DNA from: an uncultured Veillonellaceae bacterium
GTDB lineage: Bacteria > Bacillota > Negativicutes > JARBTT01
Direction: 5' to 3'
DNA length: 64,000 nt
NCBI GenBank assembly: GCA_963805085.1
Contig: CAWDTA010000002.1
Coordinates: 992,001 to 1,056,000, forward strand
Positions 51,252 through 64,000 of the stretch are shown here, in pieces (the first letter of the stretch is position 1; the number at the start of each line of letters is the position of its first letter). The notes below the pieces were generated by a model. That model was not told the origin of the DNA. It saw nothing but the letters and a program-made list of their open reading frames with translations, and ran no database searches. The translations under genes and the position numbers were made by a program.

Positions 51252-52178
51252 GTGATAAATTTGAAAAATAAGAGAATATTCTGTTTAATTCTACTAATAT
51301 TAGTTGGAATCGTAAATGTAGCAGCTGCGAAAACAACGTATGATGTTTCTGCTGGTGATCGGAAGGATGAGGTAAACTTTAATTTTGCGAACGATACGAA
51401 TACACCTAATATATTATCTGAATTAAAATGGACGGATTTAAGAACCTATGAAGTCAGGCTGAATGGGAAAAGTGATATAAATAACAAATCATTTGTGGAA
51501 GGTTCGCTGGGGTATGGTTGGATCCATAGTGGGCATAATCAAGATTCCGATTATGCAGGGGACAATCGGACAGGGATGTCTTCAAGATCTGAAAATAATG
51601 CTGGGAATGGACATGTGGTGGACGGCTCCATAGGTTACGGATACTATATTAATAAACAAAAAAAGAGTAAGACAGCCCTAGTGGCTGGGTACTCAGTGAA
51701 TAAACAATCCTTGACACTCACAGATGGAAACCAAACTTTTTCTGATTTCGTGAATCAGTTTCAACCCATTGGTCCATTTTCTGGACTCAACAGTACCTTT
51801 GATACGCGTTGGAAGGGGCCTTATATTGGTTTGACTTTTGAAAAACAAGCGAGCGCAAAACTAAATCTTTTTTCACGATTTGAATATCATTTCACAAATT
51901 ACTATGCAGAAGGTAACTGGAACTTAAGTAGCGCATATGCTCATCCAAAAAGTATTGAACAAAGTGCCAGTGGATATGGTACAATTTTTAGTGTAGGGTC
52001 AGAATATCAAATGAATAAAGAATGGGCTTTAAAAGCAAAGATGAATTTTTCTCATTTTAAAACGAAAGCTGGAGTTCATAGAGCTTTTGCAGCTGATGGC
52101 AATACATATGAAACACGTTTGAATGAAGCAAACTGGGGCTCACGATCCTTTAATCTAAATGTAACTAAAAAATTCTAA
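51252..52178 (+). CDS. Outer-membrane beta-barrel, omptin/Protochlamydia-OMP-like
   Basis: Signal peptide (AAA-K), NILSELKW and QDSDY omptin-like motifs, amphipathic beta strands, C-terminal Phe. Confidence 0.75.
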   Translation: MINLKNKRIFCLILLILVGIVNVAAAKTTYDVSAGDRKDEVNFNFANDTNTPNILSELKWTDLRTYEVRLNGKSDINNKSFVEGSLGYGWIHSGHNQDSDYAGDNRTGMSSRSENNAGNGHVVDGSIGYGYYINKQKKSKTALVAGYSVNKQSLTLTDGNQTFSDFVNQFQPIGPFSGLNSTFDTRWKGPYIGLTFEKQASAKLNLFSRFEYHFTNYYAEGNWNLSSAYAHPKSIEQSASGYGTIFSVGSEYQMNKEWALKAKMNFSHFKTKAGVHRAFAADGNTYETRLNEANWGSRSFNLNVTKKF

Positions 52179-52273: not shown

Positions 52274-52302
52274 TTGACATAATTTGCTAAAAGATATATA
52301 AT
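52274..52302 (+). promoter_or_regulatory. Consensus sigmaA promoter driving the riboswitch-agr transcript
   Basis: TTGACA-N17-TATAAT, a perfect consensus. Confidence 0.85.
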
Positions 52303-52311
52303 TTAGACAAA

Positions 52312-52398
52312 ATAATACGTTGGCAAACTCATTGAAAAGTGAGGACGCAAAGCTATGGGTCTAGAGGGTTTTTAACCTATGATTGCCAGGTTGCAACT
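52312..52398 (+). ncRNA. c-di-GMP-I (GEMM) riboswitch aptamer
   Basis: GGCAAAC-stem-GAAA loop-GGACGCAAAGC..GGGUCUA..AUGAUUGCCAGGUUGC matches the GEMM-I consensus; G at the Vc2 G20-equivalent position. Confidence 0.92.
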
Positions 52399-52401
52399 TG
52401 A

Positions 52402-52433
52402 AAAAGTGAGGCTAGATGTCTTGCTTTTTTTTT
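52402..52433 (+). terminator. Riboswitch expression-platform terminator
   Basis: aagtgaggc / gtcttgctt stem (with G-U pairs) followed by a T9 run, immediately 3' of the aptamer. Confidence 0.75.
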
Positions 52434-52596
52434 GACAACGAAAACGTTATTTCGTATTTGATTCGCATTTAATGGGAAATAAGGGGGGATTTTATTACCG
52501 TAGTTTAGTTAAGAAACTGTTGTGTGTGAAATAGATAAGAAAATCGTCATAGAAATAAATGGTTAATTCTAATATTAGTTTAAGGAAGGGAAGAAA

Positions 52597-53910
52597 GTGC
52601 CAGAAATTGATTTTAAGGTAGTAATTTTTAATTCTTTTCCTGAAGCGATGGTATTAGCATGGTTAAGCCTGTCGCTTTTAGGGATAAGGCCACGTTTTTA
52701 CCAAATACTATTGATCGGATGTTTACAGACCGTTTTTGTTATGATTCTTTATTTTGTTATTGGGAAATTGATTCCCATCCCTTTTGGTGTTCATACAATA
52801 ATGCAATTGGCTTGTTTGGCTGGAATAATACACGTTGTCACAAGGATTCCTTATAACAGCAGTTGCTTGGCTACTTTGTTCGGAATTAGTATTTATTGCT
52901 GTATTGATTGTTGGGTGACGCCAATATGTGTTTATATTTGGGGACAGTCTCTTGTCGATTTCGCAAATAACTGGTGGATGCGAATGTCTTATTTCACTTT
53001 GCAAATGTTCATTAATATAATGATTATTTTTTTGATTCGCAAGTTTAGTCTTTGGTTACCAGACGGAGCAGACTCTGGGCGTAGCAAAACGTTGCTAGGA
53101 TTGGCCGGGCTGTTGGCTACGCAAACGTTAATAATAGATTTTTTTTGTTGGAAATATTATCTGGCTTATGCGGATGCTTTTAAGGCGCCCATACATTTAT
53201 ATTTTGTTTTAATAAACGCAATCTTACCGTTGATTACGATGGTTATTATCAGGCAATTCATGGGGTTTATTCGTCGGGAAGTAGAAGATAAGACGCAACT
53301 CGATACGCTTAGTCATGTGGAAGGACTGCTGTATACAATGCGAACGCAGCGTCACGATTTTAGCCATGAATTACAGGTGATTTACGGTTTGTTGCAAGTA
53401 GAGGAGTATCAAGAAGCCCTAAATTATTTAAAAAAGAGTGTGACCGAGGTTGCTGCGACTTCAGAATTGGTCAAAACCGATAATCTTGGTGTCACGGCAT
53501 TGCTCTACACGAAGACTGGCTTGGCAGAAGCCCGCAAAATTACTTTGCATATTACCGTGGAAACGAGTTTGAAACAAGCTCCCTTAGAAGCAAGGGATAT
53601 CAATGTGATTCTGGGTAACCTGATTGACAATGCCATGGATGCGGTGGAAAAATTGCCAATACCAGAAAGGCAGGTGTCAGTTACCATTGGGCTGGGAATA
53701 GACGGGTACATATTGGAAGTACAAAACTATGGAGCACCAATTCCACCAGCTATAATTGGCAAAATATTTATGCCCGGTGTTTCGTCGAAAGGACAGGGGC
53801 ACGGCATGGGATTATACAGCATTCAAAAGCTTGTAAGTAAATACAATGGTAAAATCAAGGTGAAAAGCGATAACAATGGTACTTCTTTTCATGTCGTGAT
53901 TCCGGAGTAA
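52597..53910 (+). CDS. agrC: AgrC-like membrane sensor histidine kinase
   Basis: About 6-7 TM N-terminus, RHDF phospho-His box, NLIDNAMDA N-box, SKGQGHGMGL G-box; adjacent to agrB/D/A. Confidence 0.88.
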   Translation: MPEIDFKVVIFNSFPEAMVLAWLSLSLLGIRPRFYQILLIGCLQTVFVMILYFVIGKLIPIPFGVHTIMQLACLAGIIHVVTRIPYNSSCLATLFGISIYCCIDCWVTPICVYIWGQSLVDFANNWWMRMSYFTLQMFINIMIIFLIRKFSLWLPDGADSGRSKTLLGLAGLLATQTLIIDFFCWKYYLAYADAFKAPIHLYFVLINAILPLITMVIIRQFMGFIRREVEDKTQLDTLSHVEGLLYTMRTQRHDFSHELQVIYGLLQVEEYQEALNYLKKSVTEVAATSELVKTDNLGVTALLYTKTGLAEARKITLHITVETSLKQAPLEARDINVILGNLIDNAMDAVEKLPIPERQVSVTIGLGIDGYILEVQNYGAPIPPAIIGKIFMPGVSSKGQGHGMGLYSIQKLVSKYNGKIKVKSDNNGTSFHVVIPE

Positions 53911-53947
53911 TTAGAGATTAACAAGTTACAAGTGTTAATGATTTTGG

Positions 53948-54604
53948 ATGGAGATGAGAAATATGAGAGATTTAAGAAGTGTTGCCGAAGATACGGCGCA
54001 TTATTTGGGGGCGGAATTGCACCTTGATACTAAAGAAACGGCGGCGATACGGTTCGGACTAGAATCGCTTTTGGACTTCATTATTAATCTTGGGGCTATA
54101 ATTGGTGTTGCCTGGTGGATGGGAATTACGTCGTACGTTTTGGCAGTTTTGGTTCCATCAAGTTTGTTACGACTTGTTTCTGGGGGGGCTCACTGTTCTA
54201 CTTTTTTGCGTTGCTTAGTTCTGAGTTTGGCTATTATGATCGGTTTTGGCCAGTTGGCTGCTAAAATAATGATATCGCAATCCTTACTTTACGCTTTAAT
54301 TGTTTTTTTAGCCGCTAGTGGAGTGTACACCATACATAACTGGGTACCAGCCGATACGCCAGCAAAACCGATTGTTTCAACTAGGAAAAGAGCGATGTAT
54401 AGGAAAATTTCTTATATCTATATGGCTATTTGGACAGTTGCGATGAGCGGGCTAACCTCTTGGGGAGAGTCGGTTTCGGGGGTCGCTTTCGCGAGTATAG
54501 GGGGAGTTGGCTGGCAAATTTTTAGTATTACGCCTGCTGGTTATCACTTCGTTGCTATAATGGAGAAGTTGGTTGATAAAACAATAGTGCTTTTTAAACA
54601 ATAA
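53948..54604 (+). CDS. agrB: AgrB-family peptide-processing membrane endopeptidase
   Basis: LRLVSGGAHCSTFLRC (catalytic His/Cys) and PADTPAKP motifs. Confidence 0.92.
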   Translation: MEMRNMRDLRSVAEDTAHYLGAELHLDTKETAAIRFGLESLLDFIINLGAIIGVAWWMGITSYVLAVLVPSSLLRLVSGGAHCSTFLRCLVLSLAIMIGFGQLAAKIMISQSLLYALIVFLAASGVYTIHNWVPADTPAKPIVSTRKRAMYRKISYIYMAIWTVAMSGLTSWGESVSGVAFASIGGVGWQIFSITPAGYHFVAIMEKLVDKTIVLFKQ

Positions 54605-54610
54605 AATAAC

Positions 54611-54678
54611 CTTTTTGGACAAACATGCGGTCTTTTTTGACAAGAAATATTGTATGTAGTAAATACCTTGTCTATACT
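54611..54678 (+). promoter_or_regulatory. LytTR(AgrA)-type direct repeat and promoter for agrD-agrA
   Basis: CTTTTTGGACAA (54611) and CTTTTTTGACAA (54632), 21-bp period, just upstream of TTGTAT-N17-TATACT. Confidence 0.7.
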
Positions 54679-54724
54679 TAGGATAGTAATTATTATAACT
54701 TTTAGTCAGAAAGGAGGAGTCAAA

Positions 54725-54892
54725 TTGCTTAATTTTAAACAGAAGATGTTACATTATGCAGTTAATAAACAGAAGATGTTACATTATGCAGCTAAGGCAA
54801 TGCTTGGGGCATCGATTTTATTTTTCCTACCAGCTTGCATGGTTGGTGCATATCAACCACAAGTGCCAGAACATTTATTAGACCATGAATAA
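54725..54892 (+). CDS. agrD: AgrD autoinducing-peptide precursor (55 aa; predicted ring CMVGA)
   Basis: AGGAGG RBS plus TTG; MLNFKQKMLHYAVNKQKMLHYAAKAMLGASILFFLPA-CMVGA-YQPQVPEHLLDHE fits the clostridial C-x4-YQPxxP pattern. Confidence 0.88.
   Translation: MLNFKQKMLHYAVNKQKMLHYAAKAMLGASILFFLPACMVGAYQPQVPEHLLDHE
54736..54795 (+). repeat. 30-bp in-frame tandem duplication within agrD
   Basis: taaacagaagatgttacattatgcag(t/c)taa repeated twice, 1 mismatch. Confidence 0.95.
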
Positions 54893-54922
54893 TAACATGA
54901 GGGTATAAAAGGTAAATTTCAT

Positions 54923-55672
54923 ATGCTAAAAGTCATTATCGCCGATGATGATCCTTTAATGCGGCGGATTTTAAAACGCGTGCTTACGGAGATTCCAGGA
55001 GTAGATATCGTTGGTGAAGCGGAAGATGGACGGCAGCTCGTTGATATGGTGGAGAAACTGGAACCAGAAGTTATATTCTTGGATGTTGATATGCCAGAAC
55101 TAAACGGCATTGAGGCATCCAAAGAAATCTTTGATGTTAATCCTAATATTTTTCTCATCTTCGCGACTGGTTTTAATTGTTATGCTCGTGAGGCGTTTGA
55201 AGTTTACGCCTTTGATTATCTGACGAAACCTTTTGATTTAGAACGAATTCGGCAAACAATAAACCGTATTGCAGGATTAAAAGCAGAAAAAGAGCAGGTT
55301 GAGTTACTAAAACGCGAAAAGCCGTTGCCTAGAGAAGAGAATCTCAAGCTTAAGGTTCTATCTAATGATAAAAGCACATTTATCAATGTTTCCGATATTA
55401 TATTTATTACCCGGAATGAGCGTAAAACTATGATTTATGTTACAGGAGAGATGGTAGTTCAAACGTATGAGCCACTGCAAAAGTTTGAAGAGTCCTTAAA
55501 AAAACACCGTTTTTTCCGTTGTCACAAGGGATTTATCATTAATCCAGATATGGTGATGGAACTTTCTCCTTGGGGGAATAAAACCTATTTGGTTAAGTTG
55601 GCGAATACAAAAGAAACAGCGTTGATGACCTTGGAACACGCCAAGGAATTTCAGAATCGATATTGTTTATAA
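54923..55672 (+). CDS. agrA: AgrA-like LytTR response regulator
   Basis: REC domain (ADDD, FLDVDMP, YLTKP) plus LytTR FFRCHKGFIIN. Confidence 0.92.
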   Translation: MLKVIIADDDPLMRRILKRVLTEIPGVDIVGEAEDGRQLVDMVEKLEPEVIFLDVDMPELNGIEASKEIFDVNPNIFLIFATGFNCYAREAFEVYAFDYLTKPFDLERIRQTINRIAGLKAEKEQVELLKREKPLPREENLKLKVLSNDKSTFINVSDIIFITRNERKTMIYVTGEMVVQTYEPLQKFEESLKKHRFFRCHKGFIINPDMVMELSPWGNKTYLVKLANTKETALMTLEHAKEFQNRYCL

Positions 55673-55695
55673 ATAGAATACTAGAAGTTGGTTAA

Positions 55696-55757
55696 GTCTC
55701 CTTGGTAGATATATAGTATGTTACTACATGCTTGTATCTGCTAAGGGGATTTTTTTC
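55696..55757 (+). terminator. Long terminator hairpin after agrA
   Basis: tctccttggtagata..gtatgt / acatgc..tatctgctaagggga plus T-run. Confidence 0.75.
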
Positions 55758-55792
55758 TTTCTGTAAAGCGAATAGTTTCATTCATACAAATC

Positions 55793-55863
55793 GACCTTTT
55801 AATCAGGAAAGTTGCTTTTTCTGACAATATCTATAGAAATAGAGGCAAAATTTTGGTAAAAAT
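55793..55863 (+). promoter_or_regulatory. Second putative AgrA site and extended -10 upstream of loaP
   Basis: CCTTTTAATCAG / TTTTTCTGACAA at a 21-bp period; TGnTAAAAA lies at the same offset from the repeat as the -10 of the agrD promoter. Confidence 0.5.
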
Positions 55864-56056
55864 AAGTAGAAACAATAGGAATAATCACTTAAATGTTGTT
55901 ATGCATGTGTAATCAAGCAATGCAAAAAAATTCTCTTGTATTTTTATAGCGGAGGCGCGTGAAAAGGGTCGAGGGAATGTTATAAATTACATTGAATGAG
56001 GGCCGCTTTTTCGTCTTTTAATGGTTCTAGATGATATTTTTTAGGAGGCAATTGTT

Positions 56057-56557
56057 TTGGAATGGTATGTATTGCGTACGGTTTGTGGCAAAGAGGATGC
56101 AACGTTAACTATTTTACGAAAAATGTTTTCTGAAGTCGAGCTTATTTATCCTAGGAGAAGGATCAGTTGGCGTAAGCAAGGTAGTTATATTGATTTAGTA
56201 AGACCATTGTTTGATGGGTATCTGTTTATTTCATATCCGAAAGAGAAAATTAGAGTCTTTGATCAAATATTACGTATGCGTAATTTAAATATTGCTTGGT
56301 TAGTATATAGCGGTGGCGAATTAATCCCGATTTTAAGTGAAGAAAAGCAATTAATTCAAAAACTTATGGGTAGTGATGGAATCGTTGAAGTAAGTACAGT
56401 TGAGAAACAGAATGAACAATTGCAGGTAGTCAACGGGCCACTCGTAGGATTAGAGCATATAGTTACAAAAGTTTCCCGTAGGAATCGGCGTATTACAGTA
56501 GAAATCCCGATGTTAGACGAAGTAAGGAAGATAGAGTTAGAAGGGAATTTAATATAA
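56057..56557 (+). CDS. loaP: NusG-paralogue antiterminator (LoaP-type)
   Basis: WYVLRTVCGKE NGN start, PLFDGYLF, KOW with NGPLVGLE and basic SRRNRRI; located at the head of a PKS cluster. Confidence 0.85.
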   Translation: MEWYVLRTVCGKEDATLTILRKMFSEVELIYPRRRISWRKQGSYIDLVRPLFDGYLFISYPKEKIRVFDQILRMRNLNIAWLVYSGGELIPILSEEKQLIQKLMGSDGIVEVSTVEKQNEQLQVVNGPLVGLEHIVTKVSRRNRRITVEIPMLDEVRKIELEGNLI

Positions 56558-56567
56558 AAGATGGAAA

Positions 56568-56596
56568 GGGGACGCTTTATGGCGTTTCTTTTTTTT
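56568..56596 (+). terminator. Internal terminator after loaP
   Basis: gggacgc-tttatg-gcgtttc stem plus T8. Confidence 0.7.
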
Positions 56597-56624
56597 GTAG
56601 TGAAGAATTAGGAGGAAGAGTAGT

Positions 56625-57425
56625 ATGACAGAAATAAGTATAGTAAATAAGTGGATTCCGTATAGAAGACCAAATAAGTATCCGGGGCTACGCCTTTTTT
56701 GTTTTCCTTATGCAGGAGGTAGTGCCTCCGTCTTTCGCGATTGGATTCATTCTTTTCCAAAGGGAATAGACGTTTGCCCCATACAGTACCCTGGAAGGGA
56801 AAAAAGAATATTTGAGGAGTCATTTACTTCAATGGAATGTTTAACGGAGGAGTTATCTAACGTACTACTGCCGGAATTAGATATTCCATTTGCTTTTTTT
56901 GGACATAGCCTAGGTGCCTTGATTAGTTTTGAACTAGCTCGTCGACTTCAACGAAATGGTGTCAGTCCAGTTCATTTATTTATATCTAGTTACCGTGCGC
57001 CTATAATAGCAAGAAGAAAGGCGCCCATGCATTTATTGCCAGATGCTGAGTTTGTAGAGAGATTGCGTGAATATAATGGTACTCCAGATGCCGTACTGCA
57101 AAACAATGAATTGATGAAGCTGCTATTACCTACGCTCAGAGCAGATTTTGCACTTCATGAAACATATGTATACTCAGCTGGCGTTCCATTAACCTGTCCT
57201 ATTTCTGCTTTTGGAGGACTGGAAGATCTAGAGGTCAAAATTAATGATTTGGAATTATGGAAAGACCAGACCACGGGAAATTTTCGACTGCAGATGTTTC
57301 AAGGAGATCATTTTTATATTCATAACAATGATAAAGGTTTAATTAATTCGATAGTTAAAGATATGACTATTGATTATCAAAGAGTTTTGACAAATCAAGA
57401 ATATAGGAATACTCAAAGTAACTAA
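56625..57425 (+). CDS. Type II thioesterase (GrsT/RifR-like)
   Basis: FPYAGGSAS, QYPGRE, GHSLG nucleophile, LRADF, GDHFY. Confidence 0.93.
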   Translation: MTEISIVNKWIPYRRPNKYPGLRLFCFPYAGGSASVFRDWIHSFPKGIDVCPIQYPGREKRIFEESFTSMECLTEELSNVLLPELDIPFAFFGHSLGALISFELARRLQRNGVSPVHLFISSYRAPIIARRKAPMHLLPDAEFVERLREYNGTPDAVLQNNELMKLLLPTLRADFALHETYVYSAGVPLTCPISAFGGLEDLEVKINDLELWKDQTTGNFRLQMFQGDHFYIHNNDKGLINSIVKDMTIDYQRVLTNQEYRNTQSN

Positions 57426-57532
57426 AATTTTATTGCGTAAACACTGTTAATATGAAGGATATCACAAAGTGATAATAGATGATTTAAAATAGCAACATTA
57501 TCTATTTAATCATCATATAAGGAGATTTCAAT

Positions 57533-59233
57533 ATGTTTAAAGGAAAAAGAATTTCATTATTAATACAAATTGTAGGTATGTATATTTTAATTATTGTTTT
57601 GTTTATCTCAACGGCTGTTTTTTCTGTTTATAGTATAGAAGCTATAGACAATGAGATAGATGCAGTTTCAGATCGTACGGTGCCGCGTATGATACAGATG
57701 AAAGAAGCTCAAAATTTATTTACGCGTGCGTTATTAAATATGAGAGGCTTTATACTGTATGCTGATGGATCAGCTTACGAAACTAATTACCGAAATGATA
57801 TTAGCAAAGCGATAAAAGAAGTGCAAGGGTATAGAGAAACTTCAAATGAAAAAGAAACCCAAGTACAAAGTGAAAAAATACTGCAAGAATTACAAGCATA
57901 TCAAATGGTTGGTGACAAAATAATAAATGCTAAAAAAAATAATGCTCCAAATCTTGGTGAGATAACGTCGCAAGGAAGAATTATAGTAGATAGAATTAAT
58001 GATGAATTTATAAAGTTGGCTGGCATACAAACGCAATACTTTAAGGATCAAACAGCTAATATGAATAACGATATGGATAAAACAATTTCAAGAATGCAAA
58101 TGGCTTCCTTAATTATTTCAATTTTGAGTATACTATTAGCATTTTTCTACACGAAAAGATTATTAAAACGTATTTCAGTATTAAATGACGTTATAGTTCA
58201 GATTGGCAGATTAGATTTAACACCTAGCTTATATAAAGTGTCAATTAATGATGAAATTGGTGATATGCTACAACATCTTGAAGAGGCAAAGAAAGGTGTT
58301 TGTCAAACCGTTGTTTATGTTCAAGAGTCAGCGGCTACGTTAGCCGCTTCTTGCGAAGAGTTGACGGCTACAACAGAAGAATTTTTACGGTCTATTGAAT
58401 CGGTTACGACGAATGTAAATGATATTGCTTCTAGCAGTTGTGAATCAGCAACTAGTATTACTGATATTTCGGCAACGATAGAAGAAGTTTCAGCGAGTGC
58501 AGAAGAAATGAGTGCAGGAACAATGCGAATAGAGAAAAATGCGCAAGACGCAGTAACTGAATCGCAAAAAGGTATGAATTTACTAGAAGAAGTAGTAAAT
58601 CAAAATGGGACGATTTCTAATTCTATGGGAAAAATGGGGAAAGCTGCAAATGCTTTAAATAAATCATCGGAAAAAATCAAAATGATTATTGATGTTATTT
58701 CAAATATTGCAGGTCAGACCAATTTACTTGCATTAAATGCTGCCATTGAGGCGGCACGTGCTGGTGAGGCAGGAAGAGGCTTTGCCGTGGTTGCTGAAGA
58801 GGTCAGAAAGCTTGCTGAACAATCTGAGGATTCAACGAAAGAGATTACTATTATTATTAAAGAAATCAGTGATGAAATAAACAATATGTCAGAGTTCTCA
58901 AGCATTGCATCAATTGAAACAGAAAAAGGCAAGGAATTCGCTTTAAATACCAAACAAGGTTTTGAAAAGATTATTGAACAATTAGAAAAAATTAGTGATA
59001 GCATCAAAGACATGTCTCATGCCTCGGAAGGAATTGCGCAAGGAACACAAGATACTGCTGGAAGTATACAAGCGATTAGCGAAACGGCTTCGTCTACTTC
59101 TAGTAAAACGCAAACGGTAGCAGCTGCTTCAGAGGAGCAGACAGCTAGCATGACAGAAGTGGCTAGGAGCATTGATCAACTAGCTAAATTAGCCATGAAA
59201 ATGAATGAAGAGATAGGCAAATTTAAAATTTAG
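57533..59233 (+). CDS. Methyl-accepting chemotaxis protein with a four-helix-bundle-type sensor, embedded in the PKS cluster
   Basis: TM-helical sensor (MRGFILY)-TM-HAMP (DEIGDM)-MA signature. Confidence 0.92.
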
Positions 59234-59323
59234 ATATAGACTGATTTAAAGATTGGATGATGCAAGAATTTGAGTTGAAAGAATTGGCAAATAAAAAATC
59301 ATGAGTCATAAATAGAAGTAAAG

Positions 59324-59350
59324 TAAACGCCTTAAGGCGTTTTCTTTTTT
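59324..59350 (+). terminator. Internal terminator before the FAAL/PKS genes
   Basis: aaacgcc-ttaa-ggcgttt plus T-run. Confidence 0.75.
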
Positions 59351-59380
59351 ATGAAAAATATAAACTTTGGAGGTTAATTC

Positions 59381-61174
59381 ATGGAAAAGGCAGTTATTGA
59401 TTCAGTGGATAAAATTTTTACTTTAGTGGAACTTCTTCAATATAGGGCTCTTAAAAACTCTGAAAAAAGAATCTATACTTTTTTAGCAAACGGTGAAACA
59501 GAAGCTAGCTATTTAACGTATAAAGAATTGGACCTGCGGGCCAGAGCGGTTGGGGCTTATTTACAAAGTCTTAATTTGCAAGGGGAGCGTGCGTTACTGC
59601 TTTATCCTGCTGGATTAGATTATATCGTTGCTTTTATGGGGTGTCTGTATGCTGGAGTTATTGCAGTACCTGCTTATCCGCCACGGCTTAATCGAAATTT
59701 ATTAAGACTCCAGAATATTGTACAGGATTCAAAAGCGCAGGCAGTATTAACTACTTCAGCGATTATAGCAAAGTTTGAGCCTATGATTGTGCAGACACAA
59801 GGGTTATCTGAAGCGCAGTGGCTAACAACAGACAACCTTAATACGACAATTGCAAGCTTATGGCAGGAGCCGTCAATAACAGAAAATACGTTGGCGTTTC
59901 TCCAATATACCTCTGGTTCAGTAGGAGCACCAAAGGGAGTTATGGTAAGCCATGGGAATGTTCTTAATAATGAAAAGATGATTAAAACAGCTTTTGAACT
60001 TCATGCGAACAGTGTTATTGTAGGTTGGCTGCCTATTTATCATGACATGGGGCTAATGGCCAACGTACTTCAACCTCTTTATTCCGGTAGCTCTTATGTT
60101 TTTATGTCACCAGTTGATTTTTTACAAAAACCATATCGTTGGCTAAAGGCGATTTCTGATTATAAGGGGACTTTCTGCGGAGCACCAAATTTTGCTTATG
60201 ATTTATGCATTCATAAAATTACTGATGAGCAAAAGAAAACGCTGGATTTAAGTTCCTGGAAAGTAGCTTTCAATGGAGCTGAACCTGTTCGTTATGAAAC
60301 TCTTGAACAATTTGTGACTGCTTTTGAACCAGTCGGATTTAGGCGGGAAGCTGTTTGTCCATGTTACGGTATGGCCGAAACTACGCTAATGATTTCTGGA
60401 GGAGCGGTAAGCGAACCTTTTGTATACAAGATGTTCAGCGCGCAGGATCTGGAAAAAAATATTGTCTCTATTGGCAATAATCAGGAGAAGGATCATGTTC
60501 TAGTTGGCTGCGGGCATGCTTGGTTGGATCATAAGTTTACGATCACTGATCCTGAGACATTAGTTCGGTGCGCGCCTGATAAAGTAGGAGAAATATGGAT
60601 TTCTGGTTCTAGTGTTACGCAGGGCTATTGGGAAAAAACTGATATTACAAAAAATGTTTTCCAAGCATATCTAGCTGATAGTGGTGAGGGCCCTTTTTTT
60701 AGAACTGGGGATCTTGGCTTTATTCATGATGGTGAGCTTTTTGTTACAGGACGTCTTAAAGACCTCATAATCGTACGTGGAACAAATCATTACCCACAAG
60801 ATATAGAACTAACAGTTGAACAATGTCATGAAGCAATCCGTCCTGGATGCTGCGCAGCTTTTTCTATAGACGTTGACGGTGAGGAATGTTTGGGTATCGT
60901 TGCTGAGATCGAACGGCGGTATCGACCTCGCGTGTATAAGAATCAGGACGATACTAATAGACAAGAAATCGGTCAAAACAAAATCATAGAAGAAATTTAT
61001 ATGGCGATTAAGAAGAGTGTATTTAATAGTCACGAGCTTCAAATTCATGAAATATTGCTACTCAAACCAGGCAGTATTCCGAAAACTTCAAGCGGAAAAA
61101 TTCAACGGTATGCCTGTCGTAAGGGATTATTGGACGGAACGCTGGGGGCTGAAAGGGGAATTGTTAATGGATAA
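59381..61174 (+). CDS. Fatty acyl-AMP ligase (FAAL)
   Basis: LQYTSGSVGAPKG, WLPIYHDMGL, CYGMAETTL, RTGDLG, GTNHYPQDIE, IPKTSSGKIQR. Confidence 0.92.
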   Translation: MEKAVIDSVDKIFTLVELLQYRALKNSEKRIYTFLANGETEASYLTYKELDLRARAVGAYLQSLNLQGERALLLYPAGLDYIVAFMGCLYAGVIAVPAYPPRLNRNLLRLQNIVQDSKAQAVLTTSAIIAKFEPMIVQTQGLSEAQWLTTDNLNTTIASLWQEPSITENTLAFLQYTSGSVGAPKGVMVSHGNVLNNEKMIKTAFELHANSVIVGWLPIYHDMGLMANVLQPLYSGSSYVFMSPVDFLQKPYRWLKAISDYKGTFCGAPNFAYDLCIHKITDEQKKTLDLSSWKVAFNGAEPVRYETLEQFVTAFEPVGFRREAVCPCYGMAETTLMISGGAVSEPFVYKMFSAQDLEKNIVSIGNNQEKDHVLVGCGHAWLDHKFTITDPETLVRCAPDKVGEIWISGSSVTQGYWEKTDITKNVFQAYLADSGEGPFFRTGDLGFIHDGELFVTGRLKDLIIVRGTNHYPQDIELTVEQCHEAIRPGCCAAFSIDVDGEECLGIVAEIERRYRPRVYKNQDDTNRQEIGQNKIIEEIYMAIKKSVFNSHELQIHEILLLKPGSIPKTSSGKIQRYACRKGLLDGTLGAERGIVNG

Positions 61175-61205
61175 GGAACGGCGTTGGAGAACAGGAGAAA
61201 CAAAT

Positions 61206-64000
61206 ATGAAAACAGCAAGTACTGGACTTACAAGAACAAGTCAAGAAATTCAAAGCTGGCTGGTCTCTCAAATGGCGGAAAGATTAAAAATAGCAGAGGA
61301 CAAAATAGACATTCGTGAACCTTTATCTATTTACGGGTTAGATTCAGCTGAAGCAGTAATTATTACAGGGGAGATGGGGGAGTGGTTAGGCCAAGATGTA
61401 TCGCCAACCTTAGTATGGGATTACCCTACCATTGATAGTATTACGCGATTTCTGACTAGTGTGCCTAACGATTCTGCTGCCAAGGCTATAGATAAGCAAG
61501 ATGCTATAGCAGAACCAATTGCAATCATCGGGATTGGTTGTCGTTTTCCTGGTGCTAATGGACCGAAAGCATTCTGGAATTTGCTCAAAGATGGTGTAGA
61601 TGCAATAAGTGAGCGCCCAGCAGATTATCGGAGAAATCAAGGATATTCGGAGCAAATTTGCAGCACAGACGCGAAAATGAGTTGGGGAGGATATCTTGAT
61701 AGCGTTGATGAATTTGATGCTGAATTTTTCGGTATTTCACCACGGGAAGCTGCCAGTATGGATCCACAACAACGATTATTATTGGAAGTAGCTTGGGAAG
61801 CATTAGAAGACGCTGGACAGGTACCTGAACGATTAAGTGGAGAATCCGTAGGGGTATTCGTTGGTATCTCTAGTTGTGATTATGGAACGATGTTAAGAAA
61901 TTTCTCGGAGATGGACATTTATGCTGCAACTGGAAATGCATGGAGTATTGCTGCTAACCGTATTTCCTATTTACTCAATCTCCAAGGACCAAGTTTATCG
62001 GTTGATACGGCATGTTCATCTTCGCTGGTATCGGTACATTTGGCTTGTAAAAGTTTACAAAATGGTGAATCAACGATTGCTTTAGCCGGCGGGGTCAATC
62101 TTTTGTTATCACCGGAAGTAACAGGCGCTTTTGCAAAAGCAGGTATGTTAGCACCCGATGGTCATTGCAAAACCTTTGCTGCAGAAGCCAACGGCTATGT
62201 CCGTGGTGAAGGTGCGGGGATTGTAGTATTAAAATCATTATCTAAGGCTCTTCAAGATGGCGATCCAATCTATGCATTGATTCCAGGGAGTGCTGTTAAT
62301 CAGGATGGGCGCAGTAACGGGCTGACAGCGCCTAATGGTCCGGCTCAAGAAGAGGTGCTATTGGAAGCATATAAACGGGCGGGCATTTCTCCTAGTAAAA
62401 TTCAATATATTGAAGCCCATGGGACAGGAACTTCTTTGGGAGATCCCATTGAGGCTAAAGCCTTAGGAAAAGTACTTGCGACAGAACGCTCGCCCGAAAA
62501 TCCTTGCTTAATTGGTTCAGTAAAAACCAATATCGGACATTTGGAAGCGGCGGCGGGGATTGCAGGGATAATTAAGGTTGCTTTGGCGATGAAACATCGG
62601 CAAATTCCAGCAGGCCTTCACTTCGATAAACCAAATCCTTATATTCCCTTTGAAGAATTACCTTTACGTGTACAAACAGAACTGGGTCCATGGCCAGATA
62701 TGTCTTCTTCTCTTCTAGCCGGGGTGAGTTCATTTGGTTTTGGAGGAACGAATGCCCATGTGGTTCTGGAGAGTTTTCAAGCTGCCTCTTTAAAGAAACA
62801 TAGTATGACAGATTATTTACCAAAGGTGGAGCAGTTGCTTACTATTTCAGCGTCTAGTCAGGAAGCTTTATGTGATTTGACAAGGGCTTATCTGGAGTAT
62901 TTAGGTGGAGAAGGCAAAAGTTTTTCTTGGAACGATATATGTTATACAACTGGAGCACGCCGTGGGCATCATGATCATCGCCTAGCTTTGGTTGCCAGCT
63001 CAAGGGAAGAAGCGGTAGATAATCTTGATAAATATCTTAAAGGAGAACTTCCATCGAATCTTCAATTTGGACCAAAACCATCTGGAGCTTCATCTAAGCT
63101 TGTTTTTGTTTTCTCTGGACAGGGACCTCAATGGTGGGCAATGGGACGGGAACTCTTTCAAAAGGAACCAGTGTTTCGGGAGACAATAGAAGAATGTGAT
63201 GTATTATTCAGTCAGCATGCGGATTGGTCATTGGTTACTGAATTAACAGCAATAGAATCAAAGAGTCGCTTGGATCAAACGCAATTTGTCCAACCGGCTC
63301 TATTTGCTGTACAGGTAGCTTTAGCTAGGTTGTGGATGTTATGGGGAATTCAGCCAGAAGGCGTTGTTGGTCATAGTATGGGTGAGGTTGCCGCAGCATA
63401 TATTGCGGGCGCTTTAAGTCTTTCTGATGCTGTACGGGTTATTTTTCATCGCAGCAGACTTATGCAGAGAACGACTGGTCAGGGGAAAACCGTGGCAGTC
63501 GAACTTGACGGGCAAGAAGCAAAATCGTTAATTGCTAGATATGAAAATAAAGTTTCTATTGCATGCTATAACGGTCCAACTTCATTGGTTTTATCCGGAG
63601 AACCTGACAGTGTTGAAGAAATCATAGCGACCTTAGAACAAAAGAATGTATTTTGTAAGGCGTTACCTGTAAGTTATGCCTTTCACAGTTATCAGATGGA
63701 ACCGTTGATGAGCGAATTGGCGGAATCTCTGCAAGGTATGCAGTCAAAATCTGCAACGATTCCTATTTATTCAACAGTTACAGGAGCGTTAATTGATGGG
63801 CAAGACCTTAATGCCGATTATTGGGTGAAAAATCTCAGAGAATCGGTACTGTTTTCCACTGCTGTAGAGCGTCTAGTAGAAGATGAATACAATGTATTTT
63901 TGGAAATTAGTCCGCATCCAGTCCTTTCAAGCGCTATTCGAAAAAATGTAAGTAAGCAGGATAAAGAGAACATTGTATTACCTACTTTGCGCAAACATAA
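61206..64000 (+). CDS. Type I polyketide synthase (ACP-KS-AT...), 3'-truncated by the window edge
   Basis: Missing from the ORF track because it has no stop in the window. My translation gives ACP YGLDSAEAV; KS EPIAIIGIGCRFPG, DTACSSS, HGTGT and NIGHLE; AT FSGQG, GHSMG and YAFH. An alternative in-frame ATG lies at 61167. Confidence 0.95.
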   Translation, partial: MKTASTGLTRTSQEIQSWLVSQMAERLKIAEDKIDIREPLSIYGLDSAEAVIITGEMGEWLGQDVSPTLVWDYPTIDSITRFLTSVPNDSAAKAIDKQDAIAEPIAIIGIGCRFPGANGPKAFWNLLKDGVDAISERPADYRRNQGYSEQICSTDAKMSWGGYLDSVDEFDAEFFGISPREAASMDPQQRLLLEVAWEALEDAGQVPERLSGESVGVFVGISSCDYGTMLRNFSEMDIYAATGNAWSIAANRISYLLNLQGPSLSVDTACSSSLVSVHLACKSLQNGESTIALAGGVNLLLSPEVTGAFAKAGMLAPDGHCKTFAAEANGYVRGEGAGIVVLKSLSKALQDGDPIYALIPGSAVNQDGRSNGLTAPNGPAQEEVLLEAYKRAGISPSKIQYIEAHGTGTSLGDPIEAKALGKVLATERSPENPCLIGSVKTNIGHLEAAAGIAGIIKVALAMKHRQIPAGLHFDKPNPYIPFEELPLRVQTELGPWPDMSSSLLAGVSSFGFGGTNAHVVLESFQAASLKKHSMTDYLPKVEQLLTISASSQEALCDLTRAYLEYLGGEGKSFSWNDICYTTGARRGHHDHRLALVASSREEAVDNLDKYLKGELPSNLQFGPKPSGASSKLVFVFSGQGPQWWAMGRELFQKEPVFRETIEECDVLFSQHADWSLVTELTAIESKSRLDQTQFVQPALFAVQVALARLWMLWGIQPEGVVGHSMGEVAAAYIAGALSLSDAVRVIFHRSRLMQRTTGQGKTVAVELDGQEAKSLIARYENKVSIACYNGPTSLVLSGEPDSVEEIIATLEQKNVFCKALPVSYAFHSYQMEPLMSELAESLQGMQSKSATIPIYSTVTGALIDGQDLNADYWVKNLRESVLFSTAVERLVEDEYNVFLEISPHPVLSSAIRKNVSKQDKENIVLPTLRKH

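Follow-up and report, generated by a model that had tools for sequence, protein, structure and literature searches.

Organisation of the locus

The window analysed here is a stretch of 64,000 nucleotides from the genome of an uncultured Veillonellaceae bacterium (G000:C2:992001–1056000), and all of the elements described below lie on its plus strand, from position 52274 onward. They are a leader with a class I cyclic di-GMP (c-di-GMP) riboswitch, an agr-type quorum-sensing operon, a gene for a LoaP-like specialised NusG paralog, and the beginning of a long biosynthetic operon. The parts, their order and conservation, a box and promoter geometry common to two promoters, and pherotype-like variation in the quorum-sensing proteins point, on balance, to a serial cascade in which the riboswitch would govern agr, AgrA would act at boxes before loaP, and LoaP would permit read-through into the synthetase genes. 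The regulatory part of the locus contains the following features:

52274–52302, plus strand: sigma-A-type promoter of the agr leader, TTGACA-17-TATAAT, 12/12 matches
52312–52398, plus strand: c-di-GMP-I (GEMM-I) aptamer, RF01051, 72.7 bits against a gathering score of 35
52389–52413, plus strand: candidate antiterminator hairpin, GGUU..ACUU-GAAA-AAGU..GGCU, a folding prediction
52401–52433, plus strand: intrinsic terminator of the riboswitch platform, −18.7 kcal/mol, z −3.15
52597–53910, plus strand: agrC, AgrC-type membrane histidine kinase (HATPase_c_5/GHKL, SPOB_a)
53948–54604, plus strand: agrB, membrane protease that processes the autoinducing peptide (AIP), PF04647, 1.8e-31, 109.4 bits against 23
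54589–54643, plus strand: three LytTR-type direct repeats of the internal agrD-agrA promoter, GCTTTTTAAACAA, CCTTTTTGGACAA and TCTTTTTTGACAA, 21-bp period
54725–54892, plus strand: agrD, AIP precursor of 55 aa with a TTG start, TIGR04223, 21.9 against a cut-off of 19
54923–55672, plus strand: agrA, response regulator with REC and LytTR domains (PF00072, PF04397)
55694–55752, plus strand: strong intrinsic terminator closing the agr operon, −34.5 kcal/mol, z −9.0, with a T run
55794–55862, plus strand: loaP promoter, two boxes and an extended −10 element, TGgTAAAAA (55854–55862), without a −35 element
55931–55977, plus strand: conserved leader hairpin (predicted fold), outer helix UUCUCUUG/CGAGGGAA, apex GCG-GAGG-CGC at 55949–55958
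56057–56557, plus strand: loaP-like specialised NusG paralog, NF033641, 119.2 bits, NGN domain

An initial annotation of this DNA had listed a perfect sigma-A promoter, a c-di-GMP-I aptamer with a terminator, agrC-agrB-agrD-agrA, repeats of 21-bp period before agrD and loaP, terminators inside the biosynthetic operon, and loaP followed by genes for a type II thioesterase, a methyl-accepting chemotaxis protein (MCP), a FAAL and ACP-KS-AT domains, all co-oriented. These parts are borne out: the promoter matches at every hexamer position, the aptamer is full length, the agr genes are recognised by family models, the repeats are three and two boxes, the terminators lie after loaP and after the MCP gene, and the ligase is FAAL-like. 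The description of the host as a diderm Firmicute also fits, given outer-membrane protein and TolC-like genes and a relative in the same class, described below.

Conservation of the arrangement

Relatives were collected with LoaP as the query. Among 400 other genomes of the class, 14 match at E 1e-10 or better, and 6 of those 14 carry a homologous cluster with a LoaP 65–78% identical to that of the window. Metagenome contigs scanned with an alignment of seven LoaP proteins yielded 10 loci, of which 2 are too short to inform; counts below refer to 15 informative loci including the window's own, 8 of them metagenome contigs. The collection holds one further genome of the same order, and order-level searches covered 2 and 15 genomes. 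A contig scan with LoaP also found a relative of 54% identity on a contig labelled as an uncultured Pelosinus metagenome-assembled genome, Pelosinus belonging to Negativicutes, and besides it only four distant matches.

The full series of riboswitch, agrCBDA and loaP is present in 8 of the 15 informative loci: in three genomes (the window's own, G110 and G184), which represent three families (f1, f6 and f33), and in five of the eight informative metagenome contigs (L048–L052). G110 has the riboswitch (74.5 bits) followed by agrC, agrB, agrD, agrA, loaP and the genes for the type II thioesterase, MCP and FAAL, and the five contigs carry the whole series with riboswitches of 72–80 bits. G184 has a gene for a Pom-type outer-membrane protein, the riboswitch (77.5 bits), two agrC genes, agrB, agrD and agrA, and then, about 13 kb later, loaP with the thioesterase and FAAL genes. 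Transporter-like genes occur in the intervening stretch (L041 1007–14175), along with a fragment of a second AgrA (its C-terminal 94 aa); this content suggests an insertion accompanied by partial duplication. Wherever an agr cassette is linked to the cluster, a riboswitch precedes it (8/8). The loaP gene heads the cluster in 15/15 loci, and AgrA orthologs of 65–93% identity lie immediately upstream of it in 12. The wiring looks real because related DNA retains this layout.

Several variations on the layout were seen. The two agrC genes of G184 are full length and in tandem (L041 15938–18708), and in two metagenome contigs a 223-aa sensor-only AgrC paralog lies between riboswitch and agrC (L050 2326–2988; L051 469–1131). 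A gene of the Pom family of outer-membrane proteins, with 60–81% identity, adjoins the riboswitch promoter upstream in 4 of the 8 full loci (window 51252–52178; L041 19158–20000; L048 5230–6159; L049 5227–6156). Contigs from a peat metatranscriptome (RNA library X3) show 90–99% likeness to pieces of agrC, the end of agrB, agrA, the leader and first part of loaP, and the MCP gene. Sequencing runs with matches show small shares (0.06–0.11), from contigs only, and the X3 match is no proof of transcription, because such a library may contain DNA; nor is a gap in this coverage informative.

The agr genes

AgrC has a multi-transmembrane N-terminus, with about 6–7 hydrophobic segments in residues 1–217, and the staphylococcal AgrC model covers its residues 48–414. 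The cut-offs of the staphylococcal equivalog models are not reached by AgrC (47.8 bits vs 500) or AgrA (43.2 vs 400). The proteins do have the composition by which agr systems are recognised, an AgrC-type kinase (HATPase_c_5) and an AgrA with REC and LytTR domains (Response_reg, LytTR). AgrB is present in a single copy in the genome, and AgrA is the only close copy of its kind, the next best match being 30% identical.

The predicted AgrD ring is C-M-V-G-A, followed by YQPQVPEHLLDHE. The gene lies next to agrB, and its product has the Cys ring site and conserved C-terminal tail expected of an AgrD: in 9/9 homologs the alignment shows Cys, four variable residues and then YQP(Q/V)VPEH. The tail is thus conserved while eight distinct ring sequences occur among the nine proteins. 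AgrC varies in a similar manner, with sensor domains 44–50% identical to those of distant relatives vs 66–74% for the kinase domain, and 71–73% vs 90–97% in comparison with the two closest loci. AgrB, AgrC and AgrD are far less conserved as a whole than AgrA, LoaP and the biosynthetic proteins. Hypervariability of both ring and sensor domain is the pattern of diverging pherotypes and is evidence in favour of selection acting on the system. The window's agrD also contains an in-frame 30-bp tandem duplication (54738–54797, encoding KQKMLHYAVN / KQKMLHYAAK), which is a single copy in the closest relative, L049.

Boxes at the agrD and loaP promoters

The three boxes before agrD start at 54589, 54610 and 54631 and have the consensus CTTTTTnGACAA. 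In this promoter 34 nt separate the G of GACAA from the −10 element, TATACT (54673–54678), as they do in G110. At loaP, the distal box ACCTTTTAATCAG (55794–55806) and the proximal box CTTTTTCTGACAA (55815–55827) again have a 21-bp period, and the distance from proximal box to −10 is 34 nt at both promoters. In all 12 loaP promoters compared, the proximal box reads TTTTT(C/CT)GACAAT and a distal box precedes it by 21 bp. Each promoter also has an extended −10 element (TGnTA), and the alignment of the set (A1) shows invariant columns. The distance from the G of GACAA to the −10 was found by script to be 33–35 nt in 11 of the 12, and in the genome G172 it was read as 34 by eye.

A matrix built from the boxes of relatives only was scanned over 8,422,916 genome positions on both strands, as pairs 21 bp apart. 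The agrD box pairs of the window rank 1 and 2, while the loaP pair ranks 16 with the same approach, after two boxes were put in register. Of 9 agr cassettes, 8 have two or three boxes ahead of agrD; in L050 the pattern, by pattern search alone, has no match there. Both sites thus have imperfect direct repeats with a period of about 21 bp, followed by a promoter whose −35 element is weak or absent. Such a layout of boxes and promoter is the architecture of LytTR-regulated promoters, those of AgrA and related regulators, and AgrA is predicted to bind the boxes at agrD and loaP. The last nonribosomal peptide synthetase (NRPS) gene contains another box pair (L004 ~6627; C2:1090626), whose score of 18.5 places it in the genome's top 20 and which may be due to chance.

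The riboswitch leader

The aptamer matches RF01051 over its full length (model positions 1–87, E 2.5e-12), which places it in that family, and homologous aptamers of 72–80 bits lie upstream of agrC in G110, G184 and L048–L052. Promoter, aptamer and terminator are all kept in 8/8 leaders. The promoter hexamers and their spacing are identical in 7 of the 8, G184 having TACAAT, and the top pair of the terminator changes from C-G to U-A in G184. The terminator stem begins 3 nt past the aptamer and has no base in common with it.

The candidate antiterminator overlaps both the 3′ strand of the aptamer and the 5′ arm of the terminator. Truncated transcripts of the window and of G110 are predicted to form it, with pairing probabilities of 0.86–0.98 at the best-paired bases of its 5′ arm. 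It is predicted in all leaders except that of G184 (7 of 8), with energies of −4.6 to −7.1 kcal/mol. If this antiterminator is real, ligand binding would free the terminator arm, and the element would be an OFF switch. Pairings between the P2 strand and the terminator arm were also tested, because the 5′ arm of the terminator resembles the 3′ strand of P2; by eye they are not kept in G110 or G184, and they were dropped.

The sequence TTTAGACAA at 52303–52311, the first transcribed bases, resembles a single AgrA-type box. It is kept in 6 of the 8 leaders, with a one-base difference each in L050 and G184, and it may represent AgrA feedback on the riboswitch promoter or mere conservation of the leader.

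The genome has 9 c-di-GMP-I matches in all, together with one AgrB and two LoaP-like genes. Among the other eight riboswitches, three (C5:353921–354008, C4:350753–350840 and C5:383093–383177) precede paralogs of the MCP encoded in the cluster, of 36–38% identity; chemoreceptor genes are therefore a recurrent target of c-di-GMP in this genome.

LoaP and its leader

The LoaP-like protein is best described by the LoaP model, with competing NusG-family models scoring far less (UpxY 40.5, RfaH 34.3 and NusG 29.2 bits), and it matches PDB 8f5g with E 1.8e-14. It is also encoded where a LoaP would be expected, beside a secondary-metabolite operon with intrinsic terminators. A second LoaP-like gene is found elsewhere in the genome (C4:105912–106415, 83.6 bits).

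The intergenic region between agrA and loaP is 385 nt long. Of the 18 predicted pairs of the leader hairpin within it, 5 keep pairing through two-sided changes in a comparison of 12 sequences. The apex is invariant, and the GAGG-hairpin motif in this context occurs once in the genome. The hairpin is a candidate for the LoaP recruitment site of this clade. Two other leader elements were considered: a second hairpin (GGGG...CCCU) has no following U run and was not called a terminator, and a short open reading frame before loaP (ATGGTTC...) differs in frame, as judged by eye, between relatives.

The biosynthetic operon

Downstream of loaP the window contains:

56563–56594, plus strand: terminator between loaP and the thioesterase gene, −15 kcal/mol, z −4.5
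56625–57425, plus strand: stand-alone type II thioesterase of 266 aa, PF00975, 9.8e-52
57533–59233, plus strand: methyl-accepting chemotaxis protein, PF00015, 6.4e-47
59320–59347, plus strand: intrinsic terminator in the MCP–FAAL gap, −11.2 kcal/mol, z −2.9 (scan 59325–59342, T tail)
59381–61174, plus strand: FAAL-like starter ligase, AMP-binding, 2.1e-67
61017–64000, plus strand: start of a 6289-aa megasynthase, ACP-KS-AT from about 61200 to the window end

The MCP gene is present in 11 of the 13 related loci that extend that far. A terminator before the FAAL gene was found in 8 of 10 loci by a crude finder, which considered stems up to 50 nt; its rows for the agrA–loaP region were left unused because it missed the long hairpins after agrA. 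The terminator at 59320–59347 is the proposed main target of antitermination. Besides a large synthetase model, the best NCBIfam matches of the FAAL-like ligase are PRK05850 (450.7 bits) and FadD32 (428.4 bits), both below their cut-offs, and the ligase is followed by an ACP.

The product had at first been called a lipo-polyketide, and this is wrong, since the synthetase beyond the window is mostly NRPS. In 60 kb of downstream sequence, the cluster runs about 45 kb beyond the window. The megasynthase continues with KR-ACP and then four NRPS modules. It is followed by NRPSs of 1352 aa and of 3359 aa, the latter with a terminal thioesterase domain, by a 430-aa protein with a weak condensation-like match only, and by a 2966-aa NRPS ending in a reductase. 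The totals are 1 KS, 1 AT, 1 KR, about 10 A, about 13 C, 1 TE and 1 terminal reductase, and are approximate because domains were counted from pieces cut at locus borders. A single polyketide synthase (PKS) module is thus followed by about 10 NRPS modules. Genes for a phosphopantetheinyl transferase, an ABC/FtsX pair, a HlyD-family protein and an outer-membrane efflux protein follow the synthetases, the last four forming a MacAB/TolC-like set. By its predicted domains the cluster, of about 50 kb, is one for a FAAL-primed lipopeptide with tripartite efflux, not for a polyketide. The genome has further PKS-like genes, close to 1.12 Mb on C2 and within 157–236 kb on C3.

A proposed model of the cascade

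In the proposed model, the constitutive sigma-A promoter would fire into the c-di-GMP-I riboswitch. As this has a stand-alone terminator platform, the level of c-di-GMP would decide whether agrC and agrB, encoding the receptor kinase and the AIP maturase, are transcribed. In the OFF version, low c-di-GMP would allow the small antiterminator to form and high c-di-GMP would lead to termination. Processing of AgrD by AgrB would then yield a thiolactone peptide whose ring is C-M-V-G-A; AgrC would sense this peptide and phosphorylate AgrA. Phosphorylated AgrA is predicted to bind the repeats at the two promoters of the same geometry, those of agrD-agrA and of loaP. Since the first of these boxed promoters lies inside the operon, before agrD-agrA, it would create positive feedback.

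The transcript from the second promoter would carry the leader hairpin, loaP, and the thioesterase and chemoreceptor genes before reaching the terminator that precedes the FAAL gene. LoaP made in the first rounds of transcription would enable later polymerases to read through into the synthetase genes. The response to ligand and its sign, the binding of AgrA to its boxes, and the action and recruitment site of LoaP are predicted steps of this scheme.

The serial wiring from riboswitch to agr, from AgrA to its boxes at loaP and on to read-through is the account that the sequence moderately favours. Of the cascade as first proposed, the parts, their order and the shared box geometry stand; the class of the product does not, and the sign of the riboswitch, the nature of the leader hairpin, in which the UNCG loop is missing, and the seven loci that lack the upstream layers tell against it in part. 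A more far-reaching version, judged less likely than not, is that in diderm Firmicutes an expensive secreted lipopeptide is licensed by three hard-wired inputs: c-di-GMP acting directly on the agrC-agrB mRNA, the pherotype-specific AIP, and a self-encoded LoaP-class antiterminator recruited at a new type of hairpin, with a GAGG loop. This would be the first riboswitch-gated agr system, and co-expression of the MCP would tie a surfactant to the motile, low-c-di-GMP state.

Alternative explanations

A number of observations weigh against this account, and each bears on one of its layers. For the riboswitch, the coupling of c-di-GMP to agr expression is a prediction. The preferred sign is OFF, with termination at high c-di-GMP, at a confidence only somewhat better than even because the antiterminator is weak and one-sided changes are its sole comparative support: it has only 8 pairs, against a terminator of −10 to −13 kcal/mol in the same computation. 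The P1 helix of the aptamer, compared by eye across three genomes, is without covariation support. With the same wiring the riboswitch could instead be an ON switch, so that high c-di-GMP, in the sessile state, permits agrC-agrB expression and the lipopeptide belongs to the biofilm stage. When the whole leader is folded, its minimum-energy structure contains both the terminator and an aptamer-like fold, and termination could therefore be the default without ligand; the weakness of the antiterminator and its absence from G184 point the same way, and ON-type c-di-GMP-I switches exist in this very genome. In at least three other c-di-GMP-I elements of the genome, however, the 3′ strand of the aptamer doubles as the 5′ arm of the terminator, which is the ON design, whereas the terminator of the agr leader shares no bases with its aptamer; these ON-type elements are at C5:353921, C1:256518 and C3:112889, and the agr element is unlike them. 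Leader folding, moreover, found no structure that would let the bound aptamer block the terminator. An ON switch is on this evidence rather unlikely, and the OFF version is retained as a lean. In Clostridioides difficile, expression of genes with class I riboswitches is reported to drop as c-di-GMP rises (PMC6200980).

The middle layer is challenged by the 7 of 15 loci without riboswitch and agrCBD, in most of which an AgrA-like regulator is kept. The initial annotation had held that its reading would fail if homologous clusters routinely lacked the agr cassette, and here the result is divided, 8 of the 15 loci keeping riboswitch and agrCBD and 7 lacking both. G172 and G034 have an AgrA ortholog alone before loaP. 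G108 has neither agr nor AgrA beside loaP, its AgrA ortholog (71%) lying on another contig, and yet its boxes are kept. In G051 loaP is preceded by an AgrA ortholog right where the contig starts; this genome also has an unlinked agrCBDA operon, for which no riboswitch reaches the gathering score. Among the contigs, L054 resembles G108, and L055 and L056 resemble G172, each probably the same species, because the identity values are equal. A search for the AgrB family gave no match in G108 (99% complete), G034 (100%) or G172 (65%), so that the cluster and its AgrA-like regulator work elsewhere without this input. The c-di-GMP and AIP inputs are therefore a sub-lineage add-on and not intrinsic to the cluster. 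It could thus be that the modules are neighbours and not a cascade, the AgrA-like regulator being driven by another signal or kinase, and the riboswitch-agrCBD unit being recently attached or independent, with another main regulon. The four loci (G172, G034, L055 and L056) with AgrA before loaP and no agrCBD, the unlinked AgrA of G108 and the 13-kb gap between agrA and loaP in G184 would agree with this, as would a GerE/LuxR-type gene of 360–378 aa beside the orphan AgrA ortholog in the agrB-less genomes G034 and G108 (L029 13522–14658; L058 8112–9194). Against it, agrA is the last gene of its own agr operon and the sole close copy in the genome, the box type and its distance to the −10 are identical before agrD and loaP, and all 8 loci with agrCBD keep the cassette adjoining the cluster and furnished with a riboswitch; such independence is improbable. 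The box itself is unlike the staphylococcal AgrA site. The G108-type locus without agr has, in addition, a tmRNA gene 1.7 kb upstream of loaP (L025 2158–2504; L054 2186–2532), which may mark the insertion site of the cluster.

For the last layer, the score of the LoaP-like protein is 6 bits under the curated cut-off of 125 (119.3 in the genome search), no UNCG with even one flanking pair was found in the 6 noncoding stretches of the operon, and no clear terminator was found within the loaP leader. The terminator between loaP and the thioesterase gene is not conserved, being present only in the window and its closest relative L049 (2 of 12 loci), and the finder detected none before the FAAL gene in G110 and L052. 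The absence of the UNCG hairpin, the sub-threshold score and the variable first terminator would fit a LoaP relative with some other role, which does not antiterminate this operon and whose leader hairpin is an unrelated cis-regulatory RNA. That is improbable given that LoaP is by far the best NusG family for the protein, at 119 bits against at most 40, that the gene heads the cluster at every locus, and that most loci do keep the terminator before FAAL. A LoaP-like antiterminator at the end of a serial cascade thus remains the preferred account.

Comparison with known systems

LoaP is reported to read through intrinsic terminators of long antibiotic operons and to be encoded beside them (PMC12691694, PMC7819879). 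The LoaP of Bacillus velezensis requires a hairpin with a UNCG loop in the leaders of the dfn and mln polyketide operons and antagonises NusA at intrinsic terminators (PMC12691694). The present locus is similar in having a specialised NusG paralog beside a very long thiotemplate operon with intrinsic terminators and a structured leader (PMC12691694). It differs in that the gene is inside its own target transcript, downstream of the leader, in having a GAGG and not a UNCG loop, a mostly NRPS target and LytTR-type boxes at the promoter, and in a protein under the family cut-off by the 6 bits noted above.

The agr system of Staphylococcus aureus has direct repeats of 21-bp period with a poor −35 element, and a hypervariable AIP ring and receptor sensor domain. 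The locus described here shares with it agrB, agrD, agrC and agrA, 21-bp repeats upstream of a promoter without a good −35 element, and hypervariability of ring and sensor. Unlike in S. aureus, the gene order is agrC-agrB-agrD-agrA, the putative autoinduced promoter is internal and covers agrD-agrA only, agrC-agrB are on a constitutive promoter with a riboswitch as its predicted gate, the box is CTTTTTnGACAA, no RNAIII-like effector is seen, and the scores of the staphylococcal equivalog models lie far below their cut-offs. The ComQXPA system of Bacillus subtilis is a further parallel, peptide quorum sensing there switching on the surfactin lipopeptide NRPS operon. It likewise places peptide quorum sensing upstream of a lipopeptide NRPS operon, but belongs to another family (ComX/ComP/ComA) and is not known to have a riboswitch or antiterminator layer.

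The leader resembles class I c-di-GMP riboswitches of C. difficile, such as that of the flgB leader, in the succession of GEMM-I aptamer and terminator in a Firmicute; the controlled gene differs, being here an operon for a quorum-sensing receptor and maturase. For C. difficile itself, agrB1D1 is reported to fall only modestly, and without an explanation, when c-di-GMP is high; no riboswitch is described at that site (PMC13724677). A study of Clostridium beijerinckii mentions agr systems and, in a different context, a LoaP gene belonging to a hybrid cluster (PMC7884928). In the literature searched, neither a c-di-GMP riboswitch before an agr operon, nor a link of LoaP to agr, nor a quorum-sensing promoter driving a LoaP-type antiterminator was found, although supplementary lists of riboswitch genes and of LoaP hairpins, respectively, could hold a mention; nothing was found there on Negativicutes biosynthetic clusters combining NRPS and quorum sensing.

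Significance

The locus is a new combination, or variant, of known modules. Each module is textbook material; what would be joined here is a direct RNA-level step that connects c-di-GMP with peptide quorum sensing, and a step from a quorum promoter to a LoaP antiterminator. If the proposed wiring is correct, this would be a compact, testable case in which lifestyle state, cell density and transcription processivity together license a 50-kb synthetase. The GAGG hairpin would then be a second kind of LoaP recognition hairpin, and the conserved box with its geometry would serve as a regulon motif for this clade of AgrA. For a poorly studied group of bacteria, the model would also predict inducers of a silent lipopeptide cluster, namely a defined thiolactone peptide and altered c-di-GMP.

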